From positions 416,001-480,000 of the forward strand of contig CAVZJV010000014.1 of NCBI GenBank assembly GCA_963775685.1: a stretch of DNA of 64,000 nucleotides. The letters run 5' to 3'. This stretch comes from Candidatus Bathyarchaeota archaeon. Lineage in GTDB: Archaea; Thermoproteota; Bathyarchaeia; Bathyarchaeales; Bathycorpusculaceae. The notes below the pieces were generated by a model. It ran no database searches. It worked only from the letters and a program-made list of their open reading frames with translations, and was not told the DNA's origin. Numbering within the stretch: position 1 is the stretch's first letter; every line of letters starts with the position of its first letter. This document shows positions 2,855 to 52,742 of this stretch, piece by piece. A program made the translations under genes and the position numbers.

Positions 2855-3547
2855 TTAAACTTGATAGTATTGCCTCAATGGGTTTTGGGGGTCCGTCGCC
2901 AACTTTACAGATGACGGAACCACAACGCTGGGCCAATCTGCTTCGAGTTTGCGCTCAACGTCATCAACATTGATGCGGTGTATATGAAGAGCATACTTCA
3001 TCGCTTGGTCCTGCGGGTTCTCAAGCTCAAGCATTCGCTTAAGGCTTAAGTGCTCAAAGATTCTTCTAATCGGGCGCATTGAATTGCCATGGCACGAGAT
3101 AGCTATATTACCCGGCTTCAGCTTAAGCCACATTTCAAGCTGCACAACAAAGGGCAAAGTGCGGCTTTCAACCATTTTGAGGCTTTCACCGTCTGGAGGC
3201 GGAAAATCGTAACCTCGATGAACTTTGGCAAACCACTTAGGTTTTTCGGCTTCTATCTCAATCTTGCTTTTGCCCTGCAACGTGCCATAACAACGTTCTA
3301 TCAGGCGGTCGTCTATGAAAACGGGAACGTTAAGGTGGGGTTTAAGGACAATTTCAAGGGTTCTTTTGGCCCTTAAAAGATGCGATGTAAATGCATAATC
3401 AATTTTTTCTTGTTCTAGCTGTTGGGCAATCTCTTGTGCCTGTACAAGCCCTTTTGGAGTTAAGTCTGGGTCACGCCAGCCTGAGAATATTTGGTTGCTG
3501 TTGTCGGTGGTCTCAGCGTGTCTAAAGACGAACAGATTACAGATCAT
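2855..3547 (-). CDS. gpmA: 2,3-bisphosphoglycerate-dependent phosphoglycerate mutase (histidine phosphatase family)
   Basis: FRHAET (RHG-like), FSGWRDPDLT, AFTSHLLRA, ERCYG, CHGNSMR motifs; adjacent to pyk. Confidence 0.8.
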   Translation of the reverse strand: MICNLFVFRHAETTDNSNQIFSGWRDPDLTPKGLVQAQEIAQQLEQEKIDYAFTSHLLRAKRTLEIVLKPHLNVPVFIDDRLIERCYGTLQGKSKIEIEAEKPKWFAKVHRGYDFPPPDGESLKMVESRTLPFVVQLEMWLKLKPGNIAISCHGNSMRPIRRIFEHLSLKRMLELENPQDQAMKYALHIHRINVDDVERKLEADWPSVVVPSSVKLATDPQNPLRQYYQV

Positions 3548-3555
3548 AATTAGTT

Positions 3556-4950
3556 TCACCAAAATGTCGTCAGCGTTGAGGAGGATGCAAATTCTCTTAA
3601 CTCTTTTATTTTATGTATCTCTATTGAGTTGCTGGCGTGCTCCATAGCGGTTCTGATACCCTCGGTAAACAAGACAGTCTCTTCATCATCAACCAGATGC
3701 ATTTCATGAAGTCGGTTTGCAACTGCCAATAATCTGTCTTTTTCTTCACGGTAGTTTATCAGAACGGGGTACACACCGAATATGAGTTCTAGTTGTCTTT
3801 TGACCTTGATTTCAGGCGTAACGGCTATTATCGGCTGTGCAATTTTAAAGCGAGCTATCATTCTCGCAGTATATCCTGACCGCGTCAAAGGAATAACTTT
3901 GTGAACGGGCATGCTTTGGCTTATTCTCTGGATTGCCCTGCTAACCGTGTCCGATATGTTGACGAACGGGGTATCTTTAACGTTGCTCTTAACAGCTTTC
4001 TCTGTTTCATTCGCTATCCGGGCCATCATCTCAACGGCCTCCACAGGATACTGACCTACCGCTGTTTCACCCGAGAGCATAATGGCATCTGACCCATCAA
4101 GTATGGCGTTTGCAACATCACTTACTTCGGCTCTAGTGGGGTTAGGTTGATTAATCATCGATTCAAGCATCTCCGTTGCAGTAACAACAAGCTTACCTTT
4201 TTGATTACATAATTTGATGAGGGCTTTTTGAACCAGCGGTACCTTTTCAGGTTCAATTTCAACTGCCAAATCGCCTCTTGCTACCATTAATCCGCTGGCG
4301 GTATCTAAAATCTCTTCAACGTTTTGAACACCCTCAGAGTTCTCAATCTTGGCGATTATTCCGCCTTCAAAACCGTTGATCTGAGATAAATTTCTTACAT
4401 CTTGTGCGTTTCTTGTGAATGAAAGCGCGATGTATTCGATGTCGTATTTTTTCGCCAACCGTATAATTTCCAAGTCCTTCTCGAGGAAGGTTGGAACCGA
4501 AAGATGCTTGTTTGGAATGTTTACCCCTTTTCCATCTTCTATGATGCCGCTGTCCAGGGTTTGAAGGCGAAGTTTTCGATCTTTCTTTTCAACTACCCGC
4601 ATTCTAATTTTTCCATTGTCAACGTATACTTCGTCTTCAACACACATTTCGTCATAGAAATCATGATTGAAACTGACTTCTTCCCCGTCGAAGCCTATTT
4701 CCAAAATGTCGCCTTTACTAAAGACCTTTTGTTGAGATGCCCTGATTCTGATTTCTGGTCCCTTGACGTCAACAATTATGGGAATATCTGCAACTTCCCG
4801 AACGGTTTCTATAACGGATTGGTATTGAGCGAGATTTCCATAAGCGGTGTTTATCCTCACACCATTCATGCCTGCTTGGAACATCTTTTCAATTACTTTC
4901 TTTGAAAAGTTGGCGGGACCCAGAGTGCATATGATCTTTGTTTTCTTCAA
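3556..4950 (-). CDS. pyk: pyruvate kinase
   Basis: KTKIICTLGP, DVKGPEIR, IIAKIEN, MVARGDL, PTRAEVSDVANAILDGSDAIMLSGETAVGQYP; likely TTG start at 4950. Confidence 0.95.
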   Translation of the reverse strand: MKKTKIICTLGPANFSKKVIEKMFQAGMNGVRINTAYGNLAQYQSVIETVREVADIPIIVDVKGPEIRIRASQQKVFSKGDILEIGFDGEEVSFNHDFYDEMCVEDEVYVDNGKIRMRVVEKKDRKLRLQTLDSGIIEDGKGVNIPNKHLSVPTFLEKDLEIIRLAKKYDIEYIALSFTRNAQDVRNLSQINGFEGGIIAKIENSEGVQNVEEILDTASGLMVARGDLAVEIEPEKVPLVQKALIKLCNQKGKLVVTATEMLESMINQPNPTRAEVSDVANAILDGSDAIMLSGETAVGQYPVEAVEMMARIANETEKAVKSNVKDTPFVNISDTVSRAIQRISQSMPVHKVIPLTRSGYTARMIARFKIAQPIIAVTPEIKVKRQLELIFGVYPVLINYREEKDRLLAVANRLHEMHLVDDEETVLFTEGIRTAMEHASNSIEIHKIKELREFASSSTLTTFW

Positions 4951-5228
4951 AAATATCTTCTCGTTGCATATAGAATATGGCACATTCCAAGTTAAGGTTA
5001 ACGGCGAGTATTTGCGCTGCGCGCGGATTCGCACTTTAAGAAACAGTTTAGAGTAAACACTTCAAGATGCTTAAACGTGAAAGTATTGCCAAAATTCATA
5101 TCGCTTTGCTCATCGTGACCTTAATGACTCCTGCTTGTTTCACTTTGAAATGTAGCAGTGCCCTCACACTCACAACTTGTTATAAGTCTCTACACCTATC
5201 GTTCTATACTTCAGGGTGTGCCCACATT

Positions 5229-5589
5229 TTGTTCAAGACAGCCATAACCAAAAAGCAGCCCATAGAGAAACAAAAAAACCTAAACCTGCTCCACACAGTT
5301 CCATTTGAAAATGGCTTTCATTTTTTCACGGAACTCGGTAAAATTCACAGGAATTACGGCAACTAGCACTGTGGAGTTTGCCGAAAAACTCCAAACAGTA
5401 CCCATTCAATCCGTAACATTCCATTTTCAGCGTCAAGACTTTCAAAAATGGCTCAAAAACACAATTGGCGATGAAGAACTAGCTACAAGAATTAACCAAA
5501 TTAAGGCAGGGTTCCAAGATGAAAATTTGAGGAAAGCACTTTCTACAACAGTTCAAAATCGCATTGCCGAATTACAGCAACATCCCTAA
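5229..5589 (+). pseudogene. DUF5752-like small protein, +1 frameshift near 5341
   Basis: GFHFFTELGK joins FTGITATSTVEFAEKLQTVPIQSVTFHFQRQDFQKWLKNTIGDEELA after removing one A (ggtaaaattc). Confidence 0.6.
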
Positions 5590-5676
5590 ACATTCGTCAC
5601 GGAAGACAAAATAACAACATACCCTTTCCCATGAAAGTCAGATATAATATATTCAACATTAGGTAAGTGGAAAAAG

Positions 5677-6672
5677 ATGAAAATAGCATTTTATGAAGTA
5701 GAAGACTGGGAAGAAGAATACCTCAAAAAGAAGCTGAACGGTCACGTACTTAAGTTCTCAAATGAAAAACTAAGTTTGGAAAAAACCCCAGAAATAAAAG
5801 ATTTTGATGCCGTTTCAGTCTTCATCTACTCTAAAATAGATGAGCCAATCATTCGAGAAATTCCAAATTTGAAATTAATAACTACAAGATCCACCGGCTT
5901 TGACCATATCGATTTAGAAAAATGCAAGAAACAGGGAATTACAATCTGCAATGTTCCATCATACGGGGAGAACACTGTTGCCGAGCACACGTTTGCTTTG
6001 ATTTTGTCCTTGTCGAGAAACATGTGTAAGGCATGCATTAGACGTTTTGAACAGGATTTCTCAATAGAGGGATTAGAGGGGTTTGATTTGAAAGGAAAAA
6101 CTATAGGCGTCATTGGAACGGGTCAAATCGGTTTGCACGTCATAAGGATTGCAAAAGGCTTTGGCATGAACGTTTTAGCCTATGACGTTCGCCAAAACAA
6201 ACTCTTATCTGAGGTCTTAGGGTTTGAATATGTTACGCTTGAGGATCTTTTAGCTAGATCAGACGTAATTACTCTTCATGTACCCTACATGAAAGCCACA
6301 CATCATCTCATGAACAAAGATACATTCAAACTTGTTAAGAAAGGCGCCATTCTGATAAACACTGCAAGAGGCAGCATCGTGGACACTGAAGCATTAATCG
6401 AGGCTCTTGACAACAAAATACTGGCTGGTGCGGGTCTTGACGTTTTTGAAGGTGAAGAAGTTATAAAAGAGGAAAAACAGCTTTTATACGACCCTAAAAA
6501 CCTCGAAGTCTTGAACAGCCTAGTTAAGGATCATATTCTATTAAGCAAAGACAACGTCGTTTTTACTCCCCACATCGCTTTCTATAGCAAAGAAGCCTTA
6601 GAAAGAATACTTGAAACAACAGTGGAAAACATAGCTGCTTTCGTTTCGGGGAAACCGCAGAATGTTGTTTAA
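5677..6672 (+). CDS. D-2-hydroxyacid dehydrogenase (D-lactate dehydrogenase-like)
   Basis: TRSTGFDHID, NVPSYG, GVIGTGQIG Rossmann motif, INTARG, GLDVFEGE, TPHIAFYS. Confidence 0.9.
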   Translation: MKIAFYEVEDWEEEYLKKKLNGHVLKFSNEKLSLEKTPEIKDFDAVSVFIYSKIDEPIIREIPNLKLITTRSTGFDHIDLEKCKKQGITICNVPSYGENTVAEHTFALILSLSRNMCKACIRRFEQDFSIEGLEGFDLKGKTIGVIGTGQIGLHVIRIAKGFGMNVLAYDVRQNKLLSEVLGFEYVTLEDLLARSDVITLHVPYMKATHHLMNKDTFKLVKKGAILINTARGSIVDTEALIEALDNKILAGAGLDVFEGEEVIKEEKQLLYDPKNLEVLNSLVKDHILLSKDNVVFTPHIAFYSKEALERILETTVENIAAFVSGKPQNVV

Positions 6673-6760
6673 CCCAACGCGATATTGTAATTCGCAGAAT
6701 GCGGAGCAATTATTGGAATTTGTCGACTTGTGACATGACGAAATAAAAAATTATTGAATT

Positions 6761-8033
6761 ATGAGCGTGAATTGTTTGAGAATTGCGTTTTTTGTAATGA
6801 AATATCCACCTGCAATTGTTGGTGGATTGGGAACCTACGCTGAGTATATGACGAAGGAGTTTGTGGCTTTAGGATGGGATGTCTCTGTTTACACAGTTAA
6901 CCCTGGAAACCTAAAAATAAGAGAAATTTTGGGCGGTGTTGATATTCACAGGCCGCTCCTCGTTGAAGCTAGCAATGTATTTCCATTGTTTGTGGCAGAC
7001 GACCTTAAAAGATGGGGTACAAACATAAAATTCTTCACCGACATATTCGCTTACAATATGTTGGCAGCTGCACAAATGATAAACACCTCATAAAACAAGA
7101 GAACTACGACTACGCAGTTGTTTCCATTAACGACTGGTTGAGTAGCATAGCTGGAATAATCTGCAAGAATGAGTTGAAAATACCTGTAATATTTCATGTC
7201 CACTCAACCGAGTGGGGATGAAGCGGTGGAGAAGGCTCAGCTATAGTTAACCAGTTGGAGTCAGTGATGGCAGAAAAGGCCGATGGAATAATAACAGTAA
7301 GTCACGCAATGAAAGAAGATTTAGCTAAGCACGGTTGGCCAGAATCAAAAATACATGTGGTTTGGAACGGCGTTGATCCAGAAAAATATGCGCCTCAAAA
7401 AGGCAAGTCAGAGGATGTGCAGAAGCTCAGGCAAAAATACGGAATAGCCAAAGATGAAACCATGATAATTTTCCTATGCCGTTTGACGTGGGTGAAAGGT
7501 GTCAGGAATCTTGTTCAAGCGATGCCCATAGTCTTAGCTGAATATCCAAAAGCAAAGCTGGTTATACTTGGAAAGGGCGAAGAGCAGCGAGACATAACAG
7601 AACTTGCTGACCGACTTGGCATAAGCAAAAACTTAGTTTACTGCTTGGAGTTCGTGCCTGAAGACGAGCGGATTTTGCATTATGCAGCTTCTGACTTGTG
7701 CGTTTTCCTTTCTGTTTACGAGCCTTTTGATAGGTATAGTAAGCTTGGAAGCCATGTCTATGGGAAAACCCATAGTGGTCGGCGCCAAGGGTGTGGTTGG
7801 ATTCCGTGAGCAAGTCATGCCAGCCGGTCCAATGCAAAACGGCGTTCACGTAGATGGTGGGCAACCCAGTGGACATTGCGTGGGAAATCAATGAGGTACT
7901 TAAAGACCCGCAAAGAGCAAAAATTTGGGGCGAAAACGATCGCAAAAGAGTGATAGAGTATTTTACTTGGAGAAAAGCTGCCGAACAAACACTAGATATT
8001 TACAAATCACTTATTGAACTTAGCTCAAACTAA
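6761..8033 (+). pseudogene. GT4 glycosyltransferase (glycogen-synthase-like), disrupted paralog of 21531-22781
   Basis: colinear with the intact paralog but has a -1 shift near 7088, in-frame TGA at 7219, a 4-nt insertion (gata) in EPFGIV and a +1 shift near 7860. Confidence 0.85.
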
Positions 8034-8074
8034 CCTTCTGGTATTTCGAGAAATCATTGCATCTCTAAAAATAT

Positions 8075-9343
<1,269 letters not shown>

Positions 9344-9858
9344 TGTCTCACCTTTGATGCGTAAGATTGATGTGGTTTTGTAACTTTTATCTTTTTGACA
9401 CTTCGCACACTTTGTCTTGTTTCAAGTAAATAGTTGACTGACTAGTAGCCTGGAGTCGGTCTTCTAACTCTTTTCTTATGTTAAGTATTCAATGTCAGGA
9501 ACATTGTTCGATTTTTGGTTAAAGGACCCATTTATTGTACAAATAAACGCAACATACGTCGATGAGGATAATGTTCCTGTAAGCTATTATTGTGATTTTA
9601 AGTCGTATGCTATGTTTTTAGCATATTTTGGGCGGGGTGATCTTTAGAGTCAATCTGCGTAATTGACACTTAAGGCGTTTAAGCCAATACACATATAAGT
9701 GTGTAAACACATAACATCTTATGTTGATAAGCCGATAACTGAATTTGGTGAATGAAAAATGATTACAAATATAGAATTAGTCGTTTGGCAACTCACCCAT
9801 TGGAAAGATGCTTGACACGTGAAATCGTGCACAAAACTCTAAAATGGATGATTTGAAT

Positions 9859-37522: not shown

Positions 37523-39157
37523 CAGACGGTGTAAAAACTCGGAGTTTAGAAACAAGTGTTCTTGACTTCAACTCTCATCTAGCATCTGGTTGCTACTTTT
37601 GTCTTGCTTTTCTTAGGTCTTCACCAGAGCCATTAACTTTCCAACGCCAAGAATATTGATGTCCCTTAGCATGTTGTAAGCAAGCATCGTAAAGCCCACC
37701 TCACCTTTAACCTTCCTTAGACCCTTCAAGAGCAAGTACCTCTGATTGAATGCCCGCTTCATGGTTCCAAAAGGATGCTCTACCAACATCCGACGCAACC
37801 GCAACTTCCCTTTCCCCTCAGAACTCTCAAGCCTTGCTCTGAGCCTATCAACCGCACCCTGATACTCCCATCTCACCATTATCCTACCCCGCCTATTCCT
37901 AGTACACTTACTTCTAGAAGTGCAATAAGAACAGAAACCTGTTCTGTAATGCCTACCATTTTCAGGGTTATTCTTGAAACTGCCCTTCCAAAACCCCAAT
38001 TCCTTCCCAACAGGACAAACATAAACGTCTTTGACCTCATCGAAGATAAACCGTTCAGAGCCAAACTCAGGCTCCGGCACACCTACACTCTTAGTCGGAT
38101 TGAAAGCTGGAATCGGCATGAACACTGTTATCCCAGTTTCTTCACATTTAACGAGGTCATTTGCAACGTAGAAGCCTTTGTCACTCAAAACTTCCAATTG
38201 ATCAACGCCAAGCACATGTTTCGCAGCCTTAGCATCAGTCGTTAACTGATGATGGTCAGTTGAATTATTGATAACATCGTAATCCACGATTAAATGCTGC
38301 TTCGCATCAACAGATGCCTGAATGTTGTAGCAGATTTCAAGCCTTTGACTATCTACCCGCATCAAACGGCTATCAGGATCCACAAGCGAAATCTCCTTCT
38401 GGCCTGTTGCCTTCATTTGGCCTTGAATCTGCTCGTACCGTTGCTTTTCTTCTTCAAGTTTGCATATTTTCTCCTTAAGCTCATCGACATTGGTGCTTTC
38501 ATCTTCATCTGAATCAGCTGTGTCGTTTTGGTCCATTTCTTTGAGGTACTCTGCTATCTTTTCTTCTGTTTGTTTGAGCCTCAAAGCGACTGTTTTCTCA
38601 TTGAGGTTATTGCTCTTCGAATTGACAGCCCTGAATTTGGTTCCATCAATGGCTACCAGTTGAGCACCGTAAAGATCAAGGCTTCTGCAGAGGTAAACGA
38701 ATTCTTTGAAGACAGGTTTAATGCAGTCAACGTTGTCTTTTCTGAAGTCAGCTATGGTTTTATGGTCTGGCGAGAGCTTCTTCATGAGCCACATGACCTC
38801 GACGTTGCGGTGGCATTCTTTCTCTAATTTCCTGCTGGATCTTACTTGGTTGAGGTAGCCGTAAACGTAGAGCTTGAGCAAATCTGAAGGGTTGTAGGAG
38901 GGTCTTCCAGTTTCAGCTACTACTGAGTGTTTGAATCCGAGTTTTTCCAGGTTTAGGCTGTCGATGAAGGCGTCGATGAACCTGACAGGGTTGTCCTTGT
39001 CAACGTACTTGTCGATTGTATTGGGAAAAAGCACTGTTTGGTCTCTGTTTGTTCCGATTACATGTTCGCTCATGGGTTTTCAGTTGTTCTAAGGATAGTC
39101 TAGATTTAAGGTTAACGGACACAAAGCCAGCAGGAAGGAGACTTTTCACACAGTCTG
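37523..39157 (-). mobile_element. IS1182-family insertion sequence (copy A)
   Basis: TIRs cagacggtgtaaaaact / acttttcacacagtctg; 4-bp flanks gttt/attt. Confidence 0.9.
37613..39073 (-). CDS. IS1182-family transposase
   Basis: GRPSYNP, SSRKLE, PDHKTIADFR, AIDGTK, DKGF, VEHPFGTMKR. Confidence 0.93.
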   Translation of the reverse strand: MSEHVIGTNRDQTVLFPNTIDKYVDKDNPVRFIDAFIDSLNLEKLGFKHSVVAETGRPSYNPSDLLKLYVYGYLNQVRSSRKLEKECHRNVEVMWLMKKLSPDHKTIADFRKDNVDCIKPVFKEFVYLCRSLDLYGAQLVAIDGTKFRAVNSKSNNLNEKTVALRLKQTEEKIAEYLKEMDQNDTADSDEDESTNVDELKEKICKLEEEKQRYEQIQGQMKATGQKEISLVDPDSRLMRVDSQRLEICYNIQASVDAKQHLIVDYDVINNSTDHHQLTTDAKAAKHVLGVDQLEVLSDKGFYVANDLVKCEETGITVFMPIPAFNPTKSVGVPEPEFGSERFIFDEVKDVYVCPVGKELGFWKGSFKNNPENGRHYRTGFCSYCTSRSKCTRNRRGRIMVRWEYQGAVDRLRARLESSEGKGKLRLRRMLVEHPFGTMKRAFNQRYLLLKGLRKVKGEVGFTMLAYNMLRDINILGVGKLMALVKT

Positions 39158-41173: not shown

Positions 41174-42264
41174 GCTTTGTCCCTAAATTAGGTATTGAAG
41201 TAAGTCGGTGATACAGCTTTCTCGTGTCTCCCAATTTTTTGAGCTGCTTCTCTATTGAGCACTAAACACAGAATACTACACAATGCATAGAACGTCACTT
41301 GCGCTAATTCCCTGACCTTATTGTTAGCCATGCTAAACTGCGTCTTTAGGAAACTGTTAACTGCCTCAATCAGCGGTCTCTTATGATACGCCGTCTTATC
41401 CTCTAAAGACCCATAAGTCCTAAACTTCCTATCAACCCGCAACAAACCCTCCACACCCTTACGATGATTAGCAGGATATGGAATAGTTGCCTTCTCAACA
41501 GCACACCTGAGCTTAGAATCGCTATATTGGCTATCCGCTACTACACTTCTAACTTTAGCTTTACAGTGTTTGAGAATTCCCTTGGCCTTTTCAAGTAGAG
41601 CCAGTGAATGTTTCTTTTAGTTTTGGTTTGCAGAGACAAAAACGCTTGACAGCGGCAACATGGTTTTGTGGTCGATGATAGGTGCATTTTGTAGCCCAGT
41701 GCATATGATCGACCCGATCTGCCAACTCTGGCTTGAGCATCTGAGAAGCCGATCTGGTTATCTGTTGGGTGACGTGTGCTCCAAGCCTTGATAAACGAGG
41801 CATCCAACACAACATCAACTTCGCTGCTTTGCTGAGATTTGAGCAGTTTGATTACTTTTTGATCGATTATTCTGTTGAGTTTGTCTTGGCCTACTCGTTT
41901 GCTGAATCGGCTCATTACGCTTCGGGTGTAACCTTTTTGGTTGTCTTTGATTAGGCAGAGCTTTCTAATTCTTAAATCAGTGTTTAGGATGCGTGTCATT
42001 TCTTTTAGACTACGTATCGCTTTCATTCGCATAATTAAGAATGCTCGAAATAGTCCCAGTGGGTTTCTGGGTCGTCTTCCTGGGCCGCTTGTGTGGAAGC
42101 ACTGTTTTATTAGGTTATTCGCAAAGCTTAAGTCTACGTTTTTGAAGAGGGTTTCAAGGGTCTCGTGTTCATCCTGTCTCGCAGGGATCACTTCCTTGTG
42201 TGATTGGTTCTCAATGACACGAGGCCCGTTTCTAGTTATAAGCTTTTCAATTTAGGGACAAGCC
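41174..42264 (-). mobile_element. IS5/IS4-like DDE insertion sequence with inactivated transposase (41188-42191)
   Basis: 13-bp perfect TIR core ttgtccctaaatt / aatttagggacaa; VVLDASFI, GYKMH, VADSQY, RPLIEAVNS; -1 shift near 41677 and in-frame TAA (ANQN*KKH). Confidence 0.85.
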
Positions 42265-44573: not shown

Positions 44574-45989
44574 ATGAGCAAAAAACAATCTAAGAAGTTT
44601 AATGTGTTTGTGAATGAAAGCCAGCTTTCCGGGCAAATGCTCCGCGAAGAGCCTGCTCAATGGATTCTTTCGCCGTTTGTCCATCTATTCAATATTGATG
44701 AATCGACGAAGTGTCTTTTCAATTCTTTAACTCTAAAGAAAGTATATTTAACCAACAAAAAGTACGAAAAGGTTTTATCAGATCTGAGTAAAGGCGAGCG
44801 CAGTAATGACGTTAAAGAATTAATTGAATTAAAATTTGTGGTGCCTCAGGGGTTTGATTCGGAAAAAGTGTTTGATGCTGTTGCATGTAGCTTGCTTAGA
44901 AAAAAAACACAAACTAATCTTGCCTACATTTTGGTGACTGACTTCTGCAATTTCAGATGCGGCTATTGCTTTATCGAAAATAATCTAAAAGGACCAAGCA
45001 TTTCAATGTCCAAGGATTTAGCAAACAAAGTCATAAACATTCTAATCAACGAAGCAAAACAGGTCCCAGAATTAAGGGTCACATTTTATGGGGGAGAGCC
45101 GTTTAGCAATAGCGAAATTGTTTTCTACATTATTGAGAAGCTTGAAGAAGCATCTAAGAAATTCTTGTTTTCCTGCGTAACAAATGGAAGCCTAATAACC
45201 GAAGATATAGCTAAAAAACTCAAACAACACAACGTTTCCGTAGGATTATCACTAGACGGATGGGCCAACATTGACAAAAACCGCGTTTTCACAGATGGAA
45301 AAGAAACCTTTTACCAAGCTCTCAAAGCCTTAGCTATTCTGAAAGAAGCAGGCGTAAACACAGGAATATCATGCACAATCACAAAACAAAACTATATGCA
45401 CGCAGAAGAAATAGTAGAATTTATCCAGAAACTGGGAGTTAGAACCATAGGCTTCAACTTGTTGACCAGACTTAAAGAGGCAAGCAAATTTGAGGTGCCT
45501 GATCCAAAACAACTCGCTCATCATCTTTTTGGAGCTTACTTAAAAGCAAAAGAATTGCACATGTTTGAAGATCGTATAGATAATCGGCGAGCAAGTTATT
45601 TTTTCAAAGAAATACTTCATTTGTACGATTGCCCAGCGTTCGGTCAACTATTATTTTTTTCGCCATCTGGAACAGTAGGACCTTGCCATGCGTTCTATCC
45701 GTCGGGGAAATATCAAATTCCAATTAAAGAGAATTTGAAAATTCAAGAAGAACCATTATTTCATAAATGGCTGGAAATAGGCACGCTAAAAAATAAAGAC
45801 TGCATGCGATGTGCTGCGATTGGAATTTGCGGCGGGGGCTGTGCTTACGATATCTATGTTAAGACTGGGCAACTTGGCATAAAAGAAGACTACTTCTGTA
45901 CTTTTCAAAATGAAATACTAAAGCTGCTAATTTCATACAATTTCCTGCTGCAATCTCAAAAAAACCAAATTGCTAAAACCAAAAGTTGA
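44574..45989 (+). CDS. radical SAM/SPASM peptide maturase
   Basis: CNFRCGYC, FYGGEP, VTNGSL, SLDG; SPASM CPAFG...GPC...CMRCAAIGICGGGC...FC; ~110-aa N-terminal extension (candidate RRE). Confidence 0.9.
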   Translation: MSKKQSKKFNVFVNESQLSGQMLREEPAQWILSPFVHLFNIDESTKCLFNSLTLKKVYLTNKKYEKVLSDLSKGERSNDVKELIELKFVVPQGFDSEKVFDAVACSLLRKKTQTNLAYILVTDFCNFRCGYCFIENNLKGPSISMSKDLANKVINILINEAKQVPELRVTFYGGEPFSNSEIVFYIIEKLEEASKKFLFSCVTNGSLITEDIAKKLKQHNVSVGLSLDGWANIDKNRVFTDGKETFYQALKALAILKEAGVNTGISCTITKQNYMHAEEIVEFIQKLGVRTIGFNLLTRLKEASKFEVPDPKQLAHHLFGAYLKAKELHMFEDRIDNRRASYFFKEILHLYDCPAFGQLLFFSPSGTVGPCHAFYPSGKYQIPIKENLKIQEEPLFHKWLEIGTLKNKDCMRCAAIGICGGGCAYDIYVKTGQLGIKEDYFCTFQNEILKLLISYNFLLQSQKNQIAKTKS

Positions 45990-46077
45990 AGAATTTTTCT
46001 CCAATAATCCAGCCCCAGCTTTACTTCACAATAAACATTAAATAAAACGACTTAATAGATCAATGTAGTGATTGTTT

Positions 46078-46494
46078 TTGTCAAAAAATAAACGCATACC
46101 TAACTCTTCCTTAAAAAAATCAGCGACTGTCCCATCGGAAAAAAAATTGACGCCAGCACAAAAGAAACGTTTACGGATAACTTTGGCGAAAATGCCGACC
46201 ATTGAAAAACTGGATCCTAAAATGTATGCAAAACTGCAATCAACAATACGTGATGCTGTAGCAAAAACTTTACCGGAATATCAGCAATGGGTAAATTCTT
46301 CATTAATAGCAGCCGACGACTGCCCGGTAGAACTCTGTAGTTCATGCGGCAACGACTGCCCGGTAGAACTCTGTAGTTCATGCGGCAACGACTGCCCCAC
46401 GCCAACTAAAAACATTGATGACATTGTCGTAAAAGCTGTCAACGAAGCTATGATGGGAGCAATTCGCCAGGCTATGAAAAAGCAGTTCAAATAA
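46078..46494 (+). CDS. RiPP-precursor-like protein 1 with internal 7-Cys repeated core
   Basis: basic N-terminus, helical leader, core DDCPVELCSSCGNDCPVELCSSCGNDCPTP, helical follower; lies between two radical SAM genes. Confidence 0.8.
   Translation: MSKNKRIPNSSLKKSATVPSEKKLTPAQKKRLRITLAKMPTIEKLDPKMYAKLQSTIRDAVAKTLPEYQQWVNSSLIAADDCPVELCSSCGNDCPVELCSSCGNDCPTPTKNIDDIVVKAVNEAMMGAIRQAMKKQFK
46316..46397 (+). repeat. 36-bp in-frame tandem repeat (2 perfect copies plus partial) encoding DCPVELCSSCGN
   Basis: acgactgcccggtagaactctgtagttcatgcggca at 46316 and 46352, then acgactgccc. Confidence 0.95.
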
Positions 46495-46611
46495 GAAGCT
46501 GCTTTGGGTTCAGAAACCGAACGCCATCAACTGAAAAACAGTTCGCTTATTTACACCATAAAGGTAGTAGTTACCATAAAACCAATGCCTAAGAAGGTTA
46601 GATGATTTAAA

Positions 46612-48201
46612 TTGCCTGTTTTTCTTTGCATTCCGCCAGTTTCTTCTTTAATTCCATATCCAGCAATTCCATACTTAACAAGCAGCCTGAGAGCAAATAA
46701 CCAAAAGGTAAACATATTTGATCTGAACATAAAGGCTTTCAACCTAACTCTTTTCTATCAGAGAATAGATATTAAACCCAGAGAAATTCTAAGGATAAGT
46801 AACAACACGAAAAAGGCAAAATCGAAAAGAGTTCCTAAGGCAGAGATTTACTCGACCATGCGAGAAAGCCAAACAATTTTTGAAGAAATAATGTTACAAG
46901 AGGCTTATGATAAATTAGGCTATAATGTCTCAGACTTGATGTTCAAAGATATTATCAGCGAAGAATCAAAGCAGGCAACGTTGTCGGATGTCTGGAAAAT
47001 TTGTAATGCTTGGTTTCTAGAAGTTGCCCACGATTCCAAACGGCAAAATATAGTGGGATTTCATGTAATAAGTCGTACTGGTTTGATGTGGAGCATCCTT
47101 CTGGCACGTAAATTAAAGAAAATTCAGCCCAGAATTTTGACAGCTTTGGGCGGTCCAGCATTCCTCTCAGTGCAAGAAGTTCTGTCCGTCAATTCAGAAA
47201 TTGACGTAATAGTTCGAGGGGAGGGCGAGGTCACGATTTCTGAGATAGCTAATTCTTATGACGGTAGTTTGGAATCAATAAAGGGAATCGATGGAATTTC
47301 CTACAGAACTGAAAAAAACGGAATTGTTTCCAATGCTGATCGACAATTGATGAAGTCTCTTGATGCTTTGCCTTTTCCCAATTACGATGATTTACCATTA
47401 CATGAATATCCTCAGAATAAGTTTGGGATGCCTGTAATGCCGGTTGTCGGCTCTAGAGGCTGTATTGGAGACTGTGTTTTTTGTGTTGAAAAACGTTTAT
47501 GGGGAAACACGTATCGGATGCGGTCACCAGAAAACATCGTATCGGAAATCAAGAATATTAAAGAAAAACATGGAACTTCCATCATTCGATTCAATGACAG
47601 CTTGATTAATTGTAATATCAAATCGCTAGAAAAACTCTGCGATTTATTGATTGAAGAGAAGGTTGGAATGCAGTGGTCGAGCAACTCCAGAATTCGTCCT
47701 GAAATGAACAACAAACTGCTTAGGAAAATGCGACAAGCGGGTTGTATGGGCTTGTGGTTTGGCATAGAATCTGGGTCCCAGAGAATTCTGCGCAAAATGA
47801 AAAAAGGGATTGATTTGGAAACTGCTAAAAACGTGCTCCGCGATACTGCAAAAAATGGCATCCGAGTTCAGATATTTATGATAGTAGATTTTCCAGGAGA
47901 AACTCAGAGAGATTTTAACGAGTCTGTTGCTTTCTTAGAGCAAAACCACCAATTTATTGACCAAGTCAGCGTTTCACGTTTTGGAGTCTTGCCTGATTCA
48001 GAAGTTTCTCATAACCCCCAAAAATATGGAATTGAGCTGATCAAAGGAAAAACAGGGGCCACTTACAGTTATTTGTATTCGCCCTTGCCCAATAGCTACC
48101 GATTTGAAAATCTACGTTCGGTTTGGAACCGCTTAAGCATGGAAAAAACATCAGGCTCAAAAAGAAATTATCTTCCAAAAATAATTGTTCCATATTACTA
48201 A
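46612..48201 (+). CDS. cobalamin-binding (class B-like) radical SAM protein
   Basis: B12-domain LGGPAF, VIVRGEGE; GSRGCIGDCVFC; RMRSPENIVSEI; GIESGSQRILRKMKKG. Confidence 0.9.
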   Translation: MPVFLCIPPVSSLIPYPAIPYLTSSLRANNQKVNIFDLNIKAFNLTLFYQRIDIKPREILRISNNTKKAKSKRVPKAEIYSTMRESQTIFEEIMLQEAYDKLGYNVSDLMFKDIISEESKQATLSDVWKICNAWFLEVAHDSKRQNIVGFHVISRTGLMWSILLARKLKKIQPRILTALGGPAFLSVQEVLSVNSEIDVIVRGEGEVTISEIANSYDGSLESIKGIDGISYRTEKNGIVSNADRQLMKSLDALPFPNYDDLPLHEYPQNKFGMPVMPVVGSRGCIGDCVFCVEKRLWGNTYRMRSPENIVSEIKNIKEKHGTSIIRFNDSLINCNIKSLEKLCDLLIEEKVGMQWSSNSRIRPEMNNKLLRKMRQAGCMGLWFGIESGSQRILRKMKKGIDLETAKNVLRDTAKNGIRVQIFMIVDFPGETQRDFNESVAFLEQNHQFIDQVSVSRFGVLPDSEVSHNPQKYGIELIKGKTGATYSYLYSPLPNSYRFENLRSVWNRLSMEKTSGSKRNYLPKIIVPYY

Positions 48202-48254
48202 GAGTTTACTTTCACGAAAACGTCTCCTAGCTTAGTCTTAATGTTAATCACCAA

Positions 48255-48300
48255 CCATAATTATTATCTTGAGAGAGCATAAAGAGAGCAGTGATTGTTT
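48255..48300 (+). promoter_or_regulatory. duplicated upstream element (putative promoter/RBS), also at 48832-48878
   Basis: accataattattatcttgagagagcataaagagagcagtgattgttt vs accataaatattatcttgggagatcataaatagagcagcgattattt. Confidence 0.45.
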
Positions 48301-48695
48301 TTGTCAAAAAATAAATCTGCACCTATCTATTCCACAAAAAACCTGACTCCAGCACAAAAGAAACGTTTAGAGAAAACTTTGGTAAAAATGCCAACTATTG
48401 AAAAACTGGATCCTGCAGTTTATGCAAAGCTGCACTCATCGATACGTGATGCCGTGGCGAAAACTTGCCGAAATATGAGAAGTGGGTAAATTCTTCATTG
48501 GTAGCAGCCGATGATTGCCCCCCGCCAACACCTGTATGTAGTTCTTGTAGCAACGATTGCCCCACGCAGCTTTGTAGTTCATGCGGTAACGAATGCCCAA
48601 CTCCAAATAGAAAACTGGACGATATGGTTGTTAATGCTGTCAACGAAGCTATGATGGGCGCAATTCGTCAAGCTTTGAAAGAGCAGTTCAAATAA
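48301..48695 (+). CDS. RiPP-precursor-like protein 2 (1-nt deletion at ~48465)
   Basis: paralog of 46078-46494; core DDCPPPTPVCSSCSNDCPTQLCSSCGNECPTP; aaaacttgccg lacks one T relative to KTLP. Confidence 0.78.
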
Positions 48696-48878
48696 GAAGC
48701 AGCTTTACGGTCAGAAACCGACCGCCATCAACTGAAAAACAGCTCTCGCCCATTTACACAACAAAGGTGTAGTGGCCACTATTTTTCTTTGCATTCCGCC
48801 AGTTTCTTCTTCAGTTCCATATCCTGCAAAAACCATAAATATTATCTTGGGAGATCATAAATAGAGCAGCGATTATTT

Positions 48879-49982
48879 TTGCCAAAAAATAAACCAGCAA
48901 CCAAACCCCTCTCTAAAAGACCTACAAAAGCCAAAAAACAAAATCAACGCCTAAACGCACCTTCGGAAAAACTTCCATATTTTGAAAAGTTAGATCCAGA
49001 AATTTATGCAAAACTGCAATCAACTGTCCGTGAAGTCATTGAAAAAACGTTGCCCGAGTACAAAGAATGGCTAAATTCCGCATTTGGCGAAAAAATCATA
49101 GGTAACGATTCTTCAAATGGTTCCCTGCAAAACATCGACAAGTTAGTGGTTTCGGCTGTTAACAATTTAATGGCAACTGCATTGGGTAAAGCTTTGAAGG
49201 AATGTGATGAGCAGCAAGGGACTATGGAAAAATGGTTTAAAATGAAATTTTATGATGACGTTTCTGACATTAGACCTGAAAGCAGAGCATATTACAAATA
49301 TTGTGTAGAAAAGTTCGTTACCGAATTTTTTACCGGACAAAAAATATTTGAAAAGAAAATCCTCGATTTTGGTTGTGGACCGGGATACTTTTCCAAGATT
49401 TTAGCCCAACGCGGAGCACTTATAACTGGAATTGACAGAAGTTTATTTCTGATTTCGAAAGCAAATGAACTTAAGCAAAGACTATGGCTTGAAAATGTAG
49501 AGTTTTTGCATGGGGATTTTCTTGATTTTGCAAAAAATATGCCCTCGGAAAAGTTTGACTATATTGTCGCGATAGATACGATTGTGAGTTTTGACTATTG
49601 CAGACAAACGCATAATCATAAGGATTTCACTCAGGCTTTAAGCGAAATTAGAAGAGTTATGAAAGACGAGGGTCGATTTTTTATTATTGAAGCGCATCCG
49701 TTTTTTGGTCAACTTGCGAAAGGCATAACTTCCTCAAGCAAAGGACGCTTTCATGGACGTTTACCTAATTACAAAATAGAGTACAATGCTAAAGACAATC
49801 CGCACCATTGGTTTACCCTTGATGAAATGACCCGTGCTCTTAGCGAGAATGGCTTGGCTATTTGTAGGATTTATGAGCCTGATCCAAGTGTTGAATTGGA
49901 AAAAGAAAACCCTCACTTATACAAATTTTATCTGAAGTATCCACATTTAATTGTGTATGAAATATGCAAAGCGAGAACCTAA
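48879..49982 (+). CDS. class I SAM-dependent methyltransferase with N-terminal precursor-scaffold domain
   Basis: ILDFGCGPG motif I, ITGID, FDYIVA, MKDEGRF; first ~110 aa align with the precursor leader and follower. Confidence 0.88.
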   Translation: MPKNKPATKPLSKRPTKAKKQNQRLNAPSEKLPYFEKLDPEIYAKLQSTVREVIEKTLPEYKEWLNSAFGEKIIGNDSSNGSLQNIDKLVVSAVNNLMATALGKALKECDEQQGTMEKWFKMKFYDDVSDIRPESRAYYKYCVEKFVTEFFTGQKIFEKKILDFGCGPGYFSKILAQRGALITGIDRSLFLISKANELKQRLWLENVEFLHGDFLDFAKNMPSEKFDYIVAIDTIVSFDYCRQTHNHKDFTQALSEIRRVMKDEGRFFIIEAHPFFGQLAKGITSSSKGRFHGRLPNYKIEYNAKDNPHHWFTLDEMTRALSENGLAICRIYEPDPSVELEKENPHLYKFYLKYPHLIVYEICKART

Positions 49983-51111: not shown

Positions 51112-52742
51112 CAGACTGTGTGAAAAGTCTCTTTCTATGCCTAGCTCCATTTACCGTTAAGCTTAAAGCTAGCTTCAGAACAACTGAAAAGCCATGAGTG
51201 AACATGTAAACGGAACCCACAGAGATCAAACAGTCCTTTTTCCCAACACCATCGACCAGTACGTAGACAAAGAAAACCCCGTCAGGTTCATCGACGCCTT
51301 CATCGACAGCCTAAACCTGGAAAAGCTTGGATTCAAACACTCCATTCCAGCGGAAACCGGAAGACCATCTTACAATCCCTCAGATTTACTCAAACTCTAT
51401 CTTTACGGATACCTCAACCAGGTGAGATCATGTCGCAAACTCGAGAAAGAATGCCACCGCAACGTCGAGGTCATGTGGCTCATGAAGAAACTTGCTCCCG
51501 ATTTCAAGACTATTGCTGACTTCAGAAAAAACAATGTGGACTGCATCAAAGGTGTATTCAAAGAATTTGTTTATCTCTGCAGGAACTTGGATCTTTATGG
51601 TGCTCAACTGATAGCGATTGATGGCACCAAATTCAAAGCCGTCAATTCCAAAAGCAATAATCTTAACGAGAAAACGGTCGCTTTGAAGCTCAAACAAACA
51701 GAAGAAAAGATAGCAGAGTACCTAAAAGAAATGGACCAAAACGATACGACCGATTCAGCAGAAGATGAAAATGTCAATGTCGATGAGCCCAACGAGAAAA
51801 TATGCAAACTTGAAGAAGAAAAGCAACGATACGAGCAGATTCAAGATCAAATGAAAGCAACAGGCCAGAAAGAAGTTTCACTTGTTGATCCAGATAGCCG
51901 TTTGATGCGGGTAGACAGTCAAAGGCTTGAAGTCTGCTACAACATTCAGACATCCGTGGATGCGAAGCAGCATTTAATCGTGGATTACGATGTTATCAAT
52001 AATTCAACTGACCATCACCAACTAGCGACGGACGCTAAGGCTGCAAAACAGGTACTTGGCGTTGATCAGCTCGAAGTTTTGAGTGACAAAGGCTTCTACG
52101 TTGCAAATGACCTCATTGAATGTGAAGAAGCTGGGATAACAGTGTTCATGCCGATTCCAGCTTTCAATCCGACTAAGAAGGTGGGTGTTCCAGAGCCTGA
52201 GTTTGGCTCTGAACGGTTTATCTTCAATGATCTGAAAGACGTTTACGTTTGCCCCGTTGGAAAGGAACTGGGATTTTGGAAGGGCAGTTTCAAGAGTAAA
52301 CCTGAAAATGGCAAGCGTTATAGAACAGTTTCTTGTGCTGATTGTAATTCTAGAAGTAGGTGCACTCGTAATAAGCGTGGCAGGATAATGGTGAGATGGG
52401 AGTATCAGGGTGCGGTTGATAGGCTCAGAGCACTGCTGATGAGTTCTGACGGAAAAGAGAAGGTGCGCTTGAGGAGGATTTTGGCAGAGCATCCTTTTGG
52501 AACCATGAAGCGGGCATTCAATCAGGATTATTTGCTCTTGAAGGGTCTTATAAAAGTCAAAGGAGAAGTAGGATTCACGATGCTAGCTTACAACATGAGA
52601 AGAGTCATCAATATTCTGGGAGTTGGTACGCTAATGGGTTTGATGAAGGCGTAAATAGAGAAAATAAGTGAACAATAATCCCAGACAAGAGCTTGAGTGC
52701 CAAATATTCTTAGGCTTTAACTGTAAGTTTTGACACAGTCTG
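51112..52742 (+). mobile_element. IS1182-family insertion sequence (copy B)
   Basis: TIRs CAGACTGTGTGAAAAGT / (rc) CAGACTGTGTCAAAACT; perfect 4-bp TSD catt at 51108-51111 and 52743-52746. Confidence 0.93.
51194..52654 (+). CDS. IS1182-family transposase
   Basis: 486 aa, close paralog of 37613-39073. Confidence 0.93.
   Translation: MSEHVNGTHRDQTVLFPNTIDQYVDKENPVRFIDAFIDSLNLEKLGFKHSIPAETGRPSYNPSDLLKLYLYGYLNQVRSCRKLEKECHRNVEVMWLMKKLAPDFKTIADFRKNNVDCIKGVFKEFVYLCRNLDLYGAQLIAIDGTKFKAVNSKSNNLNEKTVALKLKQTEEKIAEYLKEMDQNDTTDSAEDENVNVDEPNEKICKLEEEKQRYEQIQDQMKATGQKEVSLVDPDSRLMRVDSQRLEVCYNIQTSVDAKQHLIVDYDVINNSTDHHQLATDAKAAKQVLGVDQLEVLSDKGFYVANDLIECEEAGITVFMPIPAFNPTKKVGVPEPEFGSERFIFNDLKDVYVCPVGKELGFWKGSFKSKPENGKRYRTVSCADCNSRSRCTRNKRGRIMVRWEYQGAVDRLRALLMSSDGKEKVRLRRILAEHPFGTMKRAFNQDYLLLKGLIKVKGEVGFTMLAYNMRRVINILGVGTLMGLMKA

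Follow-up and report, generated by a model that had tools for sequence, protein, structure and literature searches.

A candidate radical-SAM cassette for modification of a small cysteine-repeat protein in Bathyarchaeia

We analysed a 64,000-nucleotide stretch of the genome of Candidatus Bathyarchaeota archaeon (contig CAVZJV010000014.1, assembly GCA_963775685.1; hereafter the window, with positions counted from its first letter). The window contains a self-contained cassette of 5.4 kb at 44574-49982 on the + strand, which encodes a radical S-adenosylmethionine (radical-SAM) enzyme of the SPASM type, a small cysteine-rich protein (precursor 1), a B12-type radical-SAM enzyme, a second copy of the small protein (precursor 2) and a 367-residue class I methyltransferase, in that order (Table 1). 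A preliminary description of this DNA had claimed five co-oriented genes running from the SPASM enzyme to the methyltransferase, and the list of open reading frames (ORFs) together with a direct reading of the window bore this out. We propose that this accessory cassette modifies a small ribosomal Cys-repeat protein after translation, and that its product is an intact modified protein rather than an excised peptide, a reading to which we assign a probability of about 0.68. The genomic context supports well the existence of a radical-SAM modification system for a Cys-repeat protein, whereas the chemistry is what we infer from the gene sequences. The hosts are some uncultured Bathyarchaeia of soil, peat and permafrost.

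Table 1. Features of the cassette, in window positions
Feature	Position	Strand	Description
Radical-SAM/SPASM maturase	44574..45989	+	471 aa; N-terminal domain of ~110 aa
Precursor 1	46078..46494	+	138 aa from the conserved TTG at 46078 (probable start); 140 aa if from 46072
Precursor-1 core	46321..46401	+	two 12-aa repeats, DCPVELCSSCGN, plus DCP; 7 Cys
B12-binding-type radical-SAM enzyme	46612..48201	+	529 aa; CIGDCVFC motif
Precursor 2, interrupted	48295..48695	+	ORFs 48295-48489 and 48465-48695; 7-Cys core
Duplication scar	48696..48835	+	copied precursor 3' flank and remnant of the first ~55 nt of the B12-type radical-SAM gene
Methyltransferase N-terminal domain	48879..49220	+	residues 1-114; precursor paralogue with vestigial core
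Class I SAM-dependent methyltransferase domain	49221..49982	+	motif I LDFGCGPG

Small proteins with a cysteine-repeat core

In precursor 1 a Lys-rich tail and a leader helix come before the Cys-repeat core, and a follower helix comes after it. The leader and follower strings that had been claimed for it are present in the sequence, as is the seven-cysteine spacing, which reads C-x4-C-x2-C-x3-C-x4-C-x2-C-x3-C in precursor 1 and has a first gap of x6 in precursor 2. The core had been called simply variable; its seven cysteines are as described, but it is in fact a tandem repeat of 12 residues, DCP[TV][PE][LI]CSSCGN (DCPxxxCSSCGN), which the preliminary description missed. The repeat is closed by DCP and occurs in 1-5 copies among homologues, and the number of core cysteines follows 3n+1, with 7 or 10 in 19 of 24 orthologous precursors. 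A protein database search returned 159 homologues of precursor 1, and in the family tail, leader and follower are conserved around a core that is hypervariable in both sequence and repeat number. The distant relatives P0243, P0245 and P0248 likewise keep tail, leader and follower, with quite different Cys-rich cores. The small protein thus combines the hallmarks of the precursor of a ribosomally synthesized, post-translationally modified peptide (RiPP), namely a conserved recognition part, a variable core and genetic linkage to modifying enzymes. It belongs to no Pfam or NCBIfam family; the sole row returned, a sub-threshold match to LppA, was taken as chance, and an ESM Atlas look-up with precursor 1 gave no usable match.

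Across the 24 orthologues, the first codon of the precursor-1 frame is variable (TTG, TTA, TTT, ATA or ATT), while the TTG two codons on, at 46078, is invariant. Because the first codon varies and the later one does not, translation probably starts at 46078, which would give a protein of 138 residues beginning MSKNK. Likewise, a TTG opens the methyltransferase (MPKNK), in which the first ATG comes no earlier than residue 116. Given the conserved TTG and the same type of start in the methyltransferase, the database gene call P0079 (100 aa, from an internal ATG) is probably too short.

We assessed selection on the small genes by counting differences per codon at each codon position in the 24 orthologues. 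Values for positions 2 and 3 were 0.061 and 0.290 in the leader, 0.095 and 0.489 in the core, 0.108 and 0.308 in the follower, and 0.160 and 0.240 in the Lys-rich tail. This third-position excess in every part shows that the small genes are not chance ORFs. By this measure leader, core and follower are under purifying selection, and the tail is less constrained yet open in 24 of 24 genes. Modelled alone, precursor 1 gave a mean predicted local distance difference test score (pLDDT) of 55.8 and a predicted template modelling score of 0.28, with helices at residues 28-40, 49-81 and 113-139 and a core predicted to be disordered (residues 80-117, pLDDT below 50).

Precursor 2 had been described as a second intact protein of ~135 residues. 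Its seven-cysteine gene is there, but the single frame is not, being split into two overlapping ORFs that are out of frame with each other. One T is missing from a TTT run near 48466, a run that reads TTT in precursor 1 and in four orthologous second precursors; the loss may be a true mutation or an assembly error. This stretch arose by segmental duplication, which copied precursor 1 with the adjoining 3' flank and, from the 5' end of the B12-type radical-SAM gene, ~55 nt; the two direct repeats (D1 and D2) lie ~2.2 kb apart at 80-82% identity. The window therefore holds one intact and one frameshifted precursor copy.

The three enzymes

The first enzyme carries the radical-SAM motif CX3CX2C (C125/C129/C132) and a C-terminal seven-cysteine region (C353, C371, C410, C413, C419, C423 and C442), which together place it in the radical-SAM/SPASM maturase superfamily. 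None of these ten cysteines varies in an alignment of 20 orthologues and paralogues. Its CX2CX5CX3C block aligns with that of CteB, the nearest solved structure (5wgg, E 1.8e-26). We scored the enzymes against curated family models (NCBIfam/TIGRFAM and Pfam), each with its own cut-off. The best model for the maturase was FibroRumin (TIGR04136; 181.7 bits, cut-off 400), which aligned with residues 33-453 and so takes in the N-terminal domain. It was followed by PapB (NF047865; 150.4, cut-off 340), the nif11-type model (126, cut-off 518.7), CefB (121.5, cut-off 600), QhpD (114.4, cut-off 453), SCIFF (109.7, cut-off 425) and the CrpC family (TIGR04463; 91.8, cut-off 525, residues 43-289 only). 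The top models all describe peptide or protein maturases that act on cysteine, and none reaches its cut-off; the comparison with TIGRFAM SPASM families that had been suggested beforehand gave no score at or above a curated cut-off. Because several of these alignments begin at residue 33-35, the N-terminal domain appears to be common to the maturase and the curated models, and its position and homology to RiPP maturase models suggest that these ~110 residues resemble a RiPP recognition element (RRE). Close orthologues of the maturase extend down to ~61% identity and a next tier lies at 36-47%. Proteins of this lower tier (P0176-P0189, 560-596 aa), the nearest relatives outside the cassette family, often carry a GNAT acetyltransferase domain at the C-terminus.

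When maturase and precursor 1 were modelled together, the complex scored 0.63 against 0.01 for the best control and passed the controls. In calibration, 58 of 80 solved complexes came up to the mark used, as did 2 of 110 mismatched pairs; with custom alignments these counts apply only roughly. Contacts agreed between runs by at least 41%, and the pLDDT of the partner was at least 55. In this model the precursor sits on maturase residues 28-107, within the N-terminal domain, and the confident interface lies between the follower (precursor residues 116-139) and residues 28-29, 52-53, 87-107 and 345-350 of the maturase, with no involvement of the leader. The interface takes in six of the eight invariant or near-invariant follower columns (A126, M127, A130, I131, A134 and L135) together with the invariant maturase residues L52, T53, V90, P91, F94, V99 and E346. 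The model suggests that the maturase binds the precursor and that recognition would run via the follower helix rather than the leader.

The second radical-SAM enzyme has the domain order and CX3CX2C motif of the B12-binding type, with a score of 27.8 bits against the Pfam B12-binding model (cut-off 32.1). Its best models were the RiPP C-methyltransferase family TIGR03975 (160.8 bits, cut-off 281.85) and ApyD (NF050148; 160.1, cut-off 750), aligned over residues 5-490, followed by the hopanoid enzyme HpnJ (158.7, cut-off 577.6). The enzyme thus falls outside TIGR03975, and because HpnJ scores equally with the RiPP models, the scores do not discriminate between substrate classes. Elsewhere in the same genome, a region of ~57 kb (C14, ~2,005,000-2,062,500) encodes at least nine paralogues of this B12-type enzyme (29-36% identity) and two SPASM-type genes.

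The methyltransferase is fused to a copy of the precursor, a feature that had gone unnoticed in the preliminary description. Its residues 1-114 are paralogous to the entire precursor apart from the core (hhalign 99.9%, E 3.7e-32, 114 columns); the alignment has a 36-column gap exactly at the core, and the tail and the leader and follower helices are kept. The N-terminal domains of relatives retain a vestige of the core, DC(S/A/T)N, which in one locus (L040) reads DDCSNDCPT. Each of the 17 aligned full-length orthologues has this fusion and an unchanged motif LDFGCGPG, and the catalytic part is a class I methyltransferase (Methyltransf_31, 78.8 bits, cut-off 27). A model of the protein (pLDDT 63.5) has long helices in its N-terminal domain at residues 40-69 and 81-126. 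A fold search with this model returned only generic class I enzymes, including the RiPP N-methyltransferases CypM and BpumL; such matches do not discriminate, and we set aside a substrate class on this basis. In two loci (L029, 10291-11485, and L033, 10538-11723) the N-terminal domain is split off by a frame change, and both breaks fall in the same linker, at the vestigial core between the leader-like and follower-like helices; these splits may reflect error, decay or a separate small gene. It is the fused core-less copy that ties the methyltransferase to the system, and the copy implies that the helices are docking elements common to substrate and enzyme.

Conservation, distribution and genomic context

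A pattern scan of one genome per GTDB species gave 216 matches, of which 32 encode a relative of the precursor, in 30 distinct loci. All but one of these loci are titled Candidatus Bathyarchaeota. The only other label, Candidatus Sulfotelmatobacter, is that of a 10.4-kb contig (L038) with a 75%-identical SPASM gene and a precursor; because the contig is so short, mis-binning is a more probable explanation than transfer to Acidobacteriota. We counted neighbours over the 30 loci by tblastn with the proteins of the window. The orthologous SPASM gene lies directly upstream of the precursor in 26 loci, the B12-type enzyme is found in 21 and the catalytic domain of the methyltransferase in 23, and all three enzymes occur in the same order in 21. 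A second Cys-core precursor is present in seven loci. Two loci (L012 and L040) have the SPASM enzyme and methyltransferase without the B12-type enzyme, and three have the SPASM enzyme alone. The concern that precursor homologues might occur mostly without radical-SAM neighbours is not reflected in these counts.

Conservation of gene content ends at the cassette. None of the flanking ORFs of the window recurs in more than three of the 30 loci, and the 6-8 kb to either side of the cassette contain no conserved protease or transporter; unlinked proteases may exist. In an all-versus-all comparison of ORFs, the commonest family outside the cassette reached five loci and encodes a large secreted protein, neither protease nor transporter. 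The earlier idea of a modified protein rather than an excised peptide fits this lack of a conserved protease or transporter nearby. The secreted proteins (~840-880 aa) adjoin the orphan precursors of L010, L028 and L036, and two of the five loci that hold the family among the 30 are the orphan-precursor loci L028 and L036.

A profile built from the 32 precursors was used to map the family more widely. Across the class it was found in 3 of 401 genomes, all of one genus: apart from the genome of the window, 2 of 39 genomes of that genus were positive and none of 361 genomes from 130 other genera. Within the genus it occurred in 22 of 120 genomes (10 of 73 of high quality). Among 1.84 billion representative proteins, 17 reached E 0.001 with the profile, one of them the 367-aa methyltransferase fusion. 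The precursor family is therefore very small and, in the genomes searched, found in one genus only.

The window's own genome (3.06 Mb, 96.9% complete) contains three further precursor copies outside the window. One belongs to a second locus (L011, G000:C14:1181500-1196500; 3420-9549, minus strand) in which a SPASM paralogue of 67% identity accompanies a precursor paralogue of 193 aa with PTPACWSCGTG repeats and a Lys-rich C-terminal extension. Downstream lie a PapB-like radical-SAM gene without the N-terminal domain (201.8 bits, cut-off 340), an ORF of 95 aa whose last residue is Cys, and a radical-SAM/SPASM gene of GeoRSP-like type; no B12-type enzyme or methyltransferase is present at this locus. 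At a third locus a precursor stands beside a degraded SPASM gene, and an orphan copy lies at 7494-8009 of L010 (contig C7). A one-repeat paralogue of the precursor has exactly four cysteines. The precursor copies of L010 and L036 also carry a Lys-rich C-terminal extension.

Contigs from two RNA libraries, 85-99% identical to the window, cover the SPASM, precursor-1, B12-type and methyltransferase genes (for example, 944 nt over 45330-46268 and 315 nt over 46233-46546), which is not proof of transcription. Several contigs connect ~48201 directly to ~48829, matching relatives without a second precursor. In a read search no run held more than 0.15 of the sampled words, and there was little or no cover over the precursor-2 stretch.

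Two inverted copies of an insertion sequence (IS), at 37604-39098 and 51169-52663, bracket a 12-kb segment containing the cassette. Each measures 1495 nt and carries the gene for a DDE transposase of 486 aa that includes a DUF772 domain, and the arms are 86% complementary; an IS fragment lies at 41541-42255. We weighed a composite transposon formed by this pair and set it aside, the arms being only 86% alike.

Proposed mechanism, rival explanations and known systems

Following this logic, the substrates of the cassette would be proteins of ~138 residues with a Lys-rich tail, a leader helix, a hypervariable Cys-repeat core and a follower helix. The SPASM enzyme would first dock its substrate through its N-terminal domain, on the follower helix as the complex model predicts, and would link repeat cysteines to nearby side-chain carbons. 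The resulting thioethers would more likely be of the ranthionine than of the sactionine type. The nearest families all form thioethers at Cys, with PapB and QhpD outscoring the sactipeptide models. The B12-type enzyme would then methylate unactivated carbons in the core; both this C-methylation and the thioether chemistry are suggested by family resemblance below threshold. Last, the class I methyltransferase would reach the same substrate, or the enzyme complex, through its precursor-derived N-terminal domain and methylate a heteroatom (O, N or S). An intact modified protein is favoured as the product because no protease or exporter is linked to the cassette and the follower is conserved.

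A more specific and rather doubtful version of this scheme holds that leader and follower form a permanent two-helix docking module in an intact protein of ~15 kDa, whose loop is stapled by thioethers and methylated, and that the core-less copy on the methyltransferase finds the substrate, where it may pair with the substrate helices or take the same site on the SPASM enzyme. If true, such docking by substrate mimicry would be a mode of recognition so far undescribed among RiPP-like enzymes, and an RRE-type domain that recognises a follower would likewise be a novelty in this group of enzymes.

Several observations weigh against modification of an intact protein as we propose it. None of the three enzymes meets the threshold of any curated family (the general class I match of the methyltransferase aside), so the modifications are suggested rather than assigned by homology. 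No PqqD/RRE or SPASM model of Pfam matched the N-terminal 115 or C-terminal 129 residues of the maturase at E values up to 5, and the complex model is a prediction from shallow custom alignments in which the enzyme sequences are at least 67% identical. The poor monomer model leaves a folded 'scaffold' for the precursor, as once envisaged, without support. Precursor 2 is frameshifted in this window; lone precursors make up 4 of the 30 loci, in addition to one copy in the window's own genome; and genes are split in related loci (SPASM in 7 of 26, the B12-type enzyme in 6 of 21), for which decay is possible besides assembly error. Finally, C-x4-C-x2-C-x3-C-P resembles ferredoxin-type motifs and the one-repeat form has four cysteines, so that plain metal binding is possible.

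These points bear on three other explanations. The small protein could be a classical RiPP precursor, whose leader and follower are removed by proteases encoded elsewhere to give a cross-linked peptide of ~25-60 residues that is released or exported. Conserved flanks around a hypervariable, repeat-variable core are the usual signature of precursor peptides, orphan precursors far from the enzymes are common for RiPPs, and the precursor has no confident tertiary fold; we nevertheless regard an excised peptide as unlikely, since no protease, peptidase-transporter or ATP-binding cassette (ABC) exporter is conserved beside the cassette (the top flanking family reaching 5 of 30 loci), it is unusual for a conserved follower to equal the leader in length, and the methyltransferase retains both helices as a stable domain. 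Reading by eye only, we spotted no signal peptide or double-Gly-type site.

We also consider it improbable that the small proteins are unmodified metal- or Fe-S-binding or metallothionein-like proteins, which would deliver electrons or clusters to the radical-SAM enzymes or handle metal while the enzymes act on another substrate. The resemblance of the motif to cluster ligands and the four cysteines of the one-repeat form would suit such a role, and for CrpA, the published analogue from archaea, a function related to metals is likewise suspected (PMC13692751). Cysteine numbers, however, follow 3n+1 rather than 4n, cores and spacings change freely among members (P0243, P0245, P0248 and the second locus of the same genome), the maturase has an N-terminal domain of peptide-maturase type that is modelled on the conserved follower, and a core-less copy of the protein on the methyltransferase is hard to explain for a cofactor carrier. 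We consider it very improbable that the cassette is decaying or partly non-functional here, with precursor 2 a pseudogene, the unit a remnant between insertion sequences, and the SPASM enzyme and precursor 1 perhaps still active. The precursor-2 frameshift, the degraded SPASM gene at the third locus, the inverted IS copies around the 12-kb segment and the split genes of related assemblies all point that way, but long-read assemblies produce one-base homopolymer changes such as this frameshift, and the SPASM, precursor-1, B12-type and methyltransferase genes are full-length and 60-92% identical to intact orthologues. The RNA-library contigs over these four intact genes would fit with this, but, being no proof of transcription, they are not counted as evidence.

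The preliminary description knew of no such class of product in this archaeal lineage, a premise that is outdated. A SPASM enzyme of Methanococcus voltae, CrpC (TIGR04463), was shown in 2026 to install ranthionine-type thioethers on CrpA, a protein of 28.8 kDa with a 17-residue Cys motif repeated ten times at its C-terminus; binding by CrpC involves more than a short leader, and processing is enhanced by CrpB, a paralogue with a divergent core (PMC13692751). A mining paper lists ranthipeptide and sactipeptide clusters in TACK archaea and does not characterise them (PMC12144867). Crp is the closest published analogue of the cassette. Both are archaeal and set a SPASM enzyme, with a predicted RRE in Crp and a putative RRE-like domain here, beside tandem-repeat proteins that are rich in Cys and alike in a conserved N-terminal part. 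In both the product would remain a protein, with no protease assigned, binding would exceed a short leader (as modelled, in the cassette), and the substrate is accompanied by a paralogue that lacks the same core. They differ in enzyme family (91.8 bits here against the TIGR04463 cut-off), in host lineage and in the precursor family, which is unassigned here. The repeats of CrpA are C-terminal in a much larger protein, whereas those of the ~15-kDa precursor are 12 residues long and lie between two conserved helices. Crp has no B12-type radical-SAM enzyme and no methyltransferase, follower docking is a prediction made here, and the chemistry of Crp was measured, whereas ours is deduced from genes.

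Other known systems resemble single parts of the cassette. The maturases of PapB/freyrasin-type ranthipeptides (NF047865) are SPASM enzymes that act on repeated Cys motifs; theirs is the second-best model for the maturase, and a PapB-like enzyme occurs in the paralogous locus of the same genome. Both scores nevertheless fall below 340, the repeat here has three cysteines in 12 residues, and the precursor is much longer and has a follower. Freyrasin has a regular Cys-X3-Asp spacing, which the repeat of the cassette lacks. FibroRumin, the best-scoring model including the N-terminal domain, was compared by model only; the maturase is not a member, and a literature search for this system found no paper. 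QhpD makes Cys thioethers in the small protein subunit QhpC, and the SCIFF system makes them in a Cys-rich peptide. QhpD/QhpC and SCIFF/CteB are thus likewise radical-SAM/SPASM thioether makers, CteB being the nearest solved structure, but the scores lie below their cut-offs, there is no dehydrogenase context here and the precursor family is unrelated. For the second enzyme the RiPP C-methyltransferases (TIGR03975 and ApyD) are the best models, yet below their cut-offs. In borosins a methyltransferase is fused to its own precursor, and the cassette similarly joins a methyltransferase and precursor-derived sequence in one polypeptide; here, however, the fused copy stands at the N-terminus and its core is gone, and the precursors with cores are encoded separately. 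Because its core is lost, the fused copy cannot itself be the substrate.

The literature searches run here returned no paper characterising a secondary-metabolite or protein-modification pathway in Bathyarchaeia. The cassette is related to the known radical-SAM systems that modify peptides and proteins but is itself uncharacterised, although the list of related clusters that accompanies the Crp paper might include the family. Enzymatic thioether cross-linking of whole proteins, rather than short peptides, has only just been shown in archaea, with Crp as the sole example. Compared with Crp, the cassette offers a second, unrelated and much smaller substrate, easier for mass spectrometry, and it adds two tailoring enzymes and, in the core-less domain on the methyltransferase, a natural experiment on recognition. 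Being small and self-contained, it is directly testable by heterologous co-expression.

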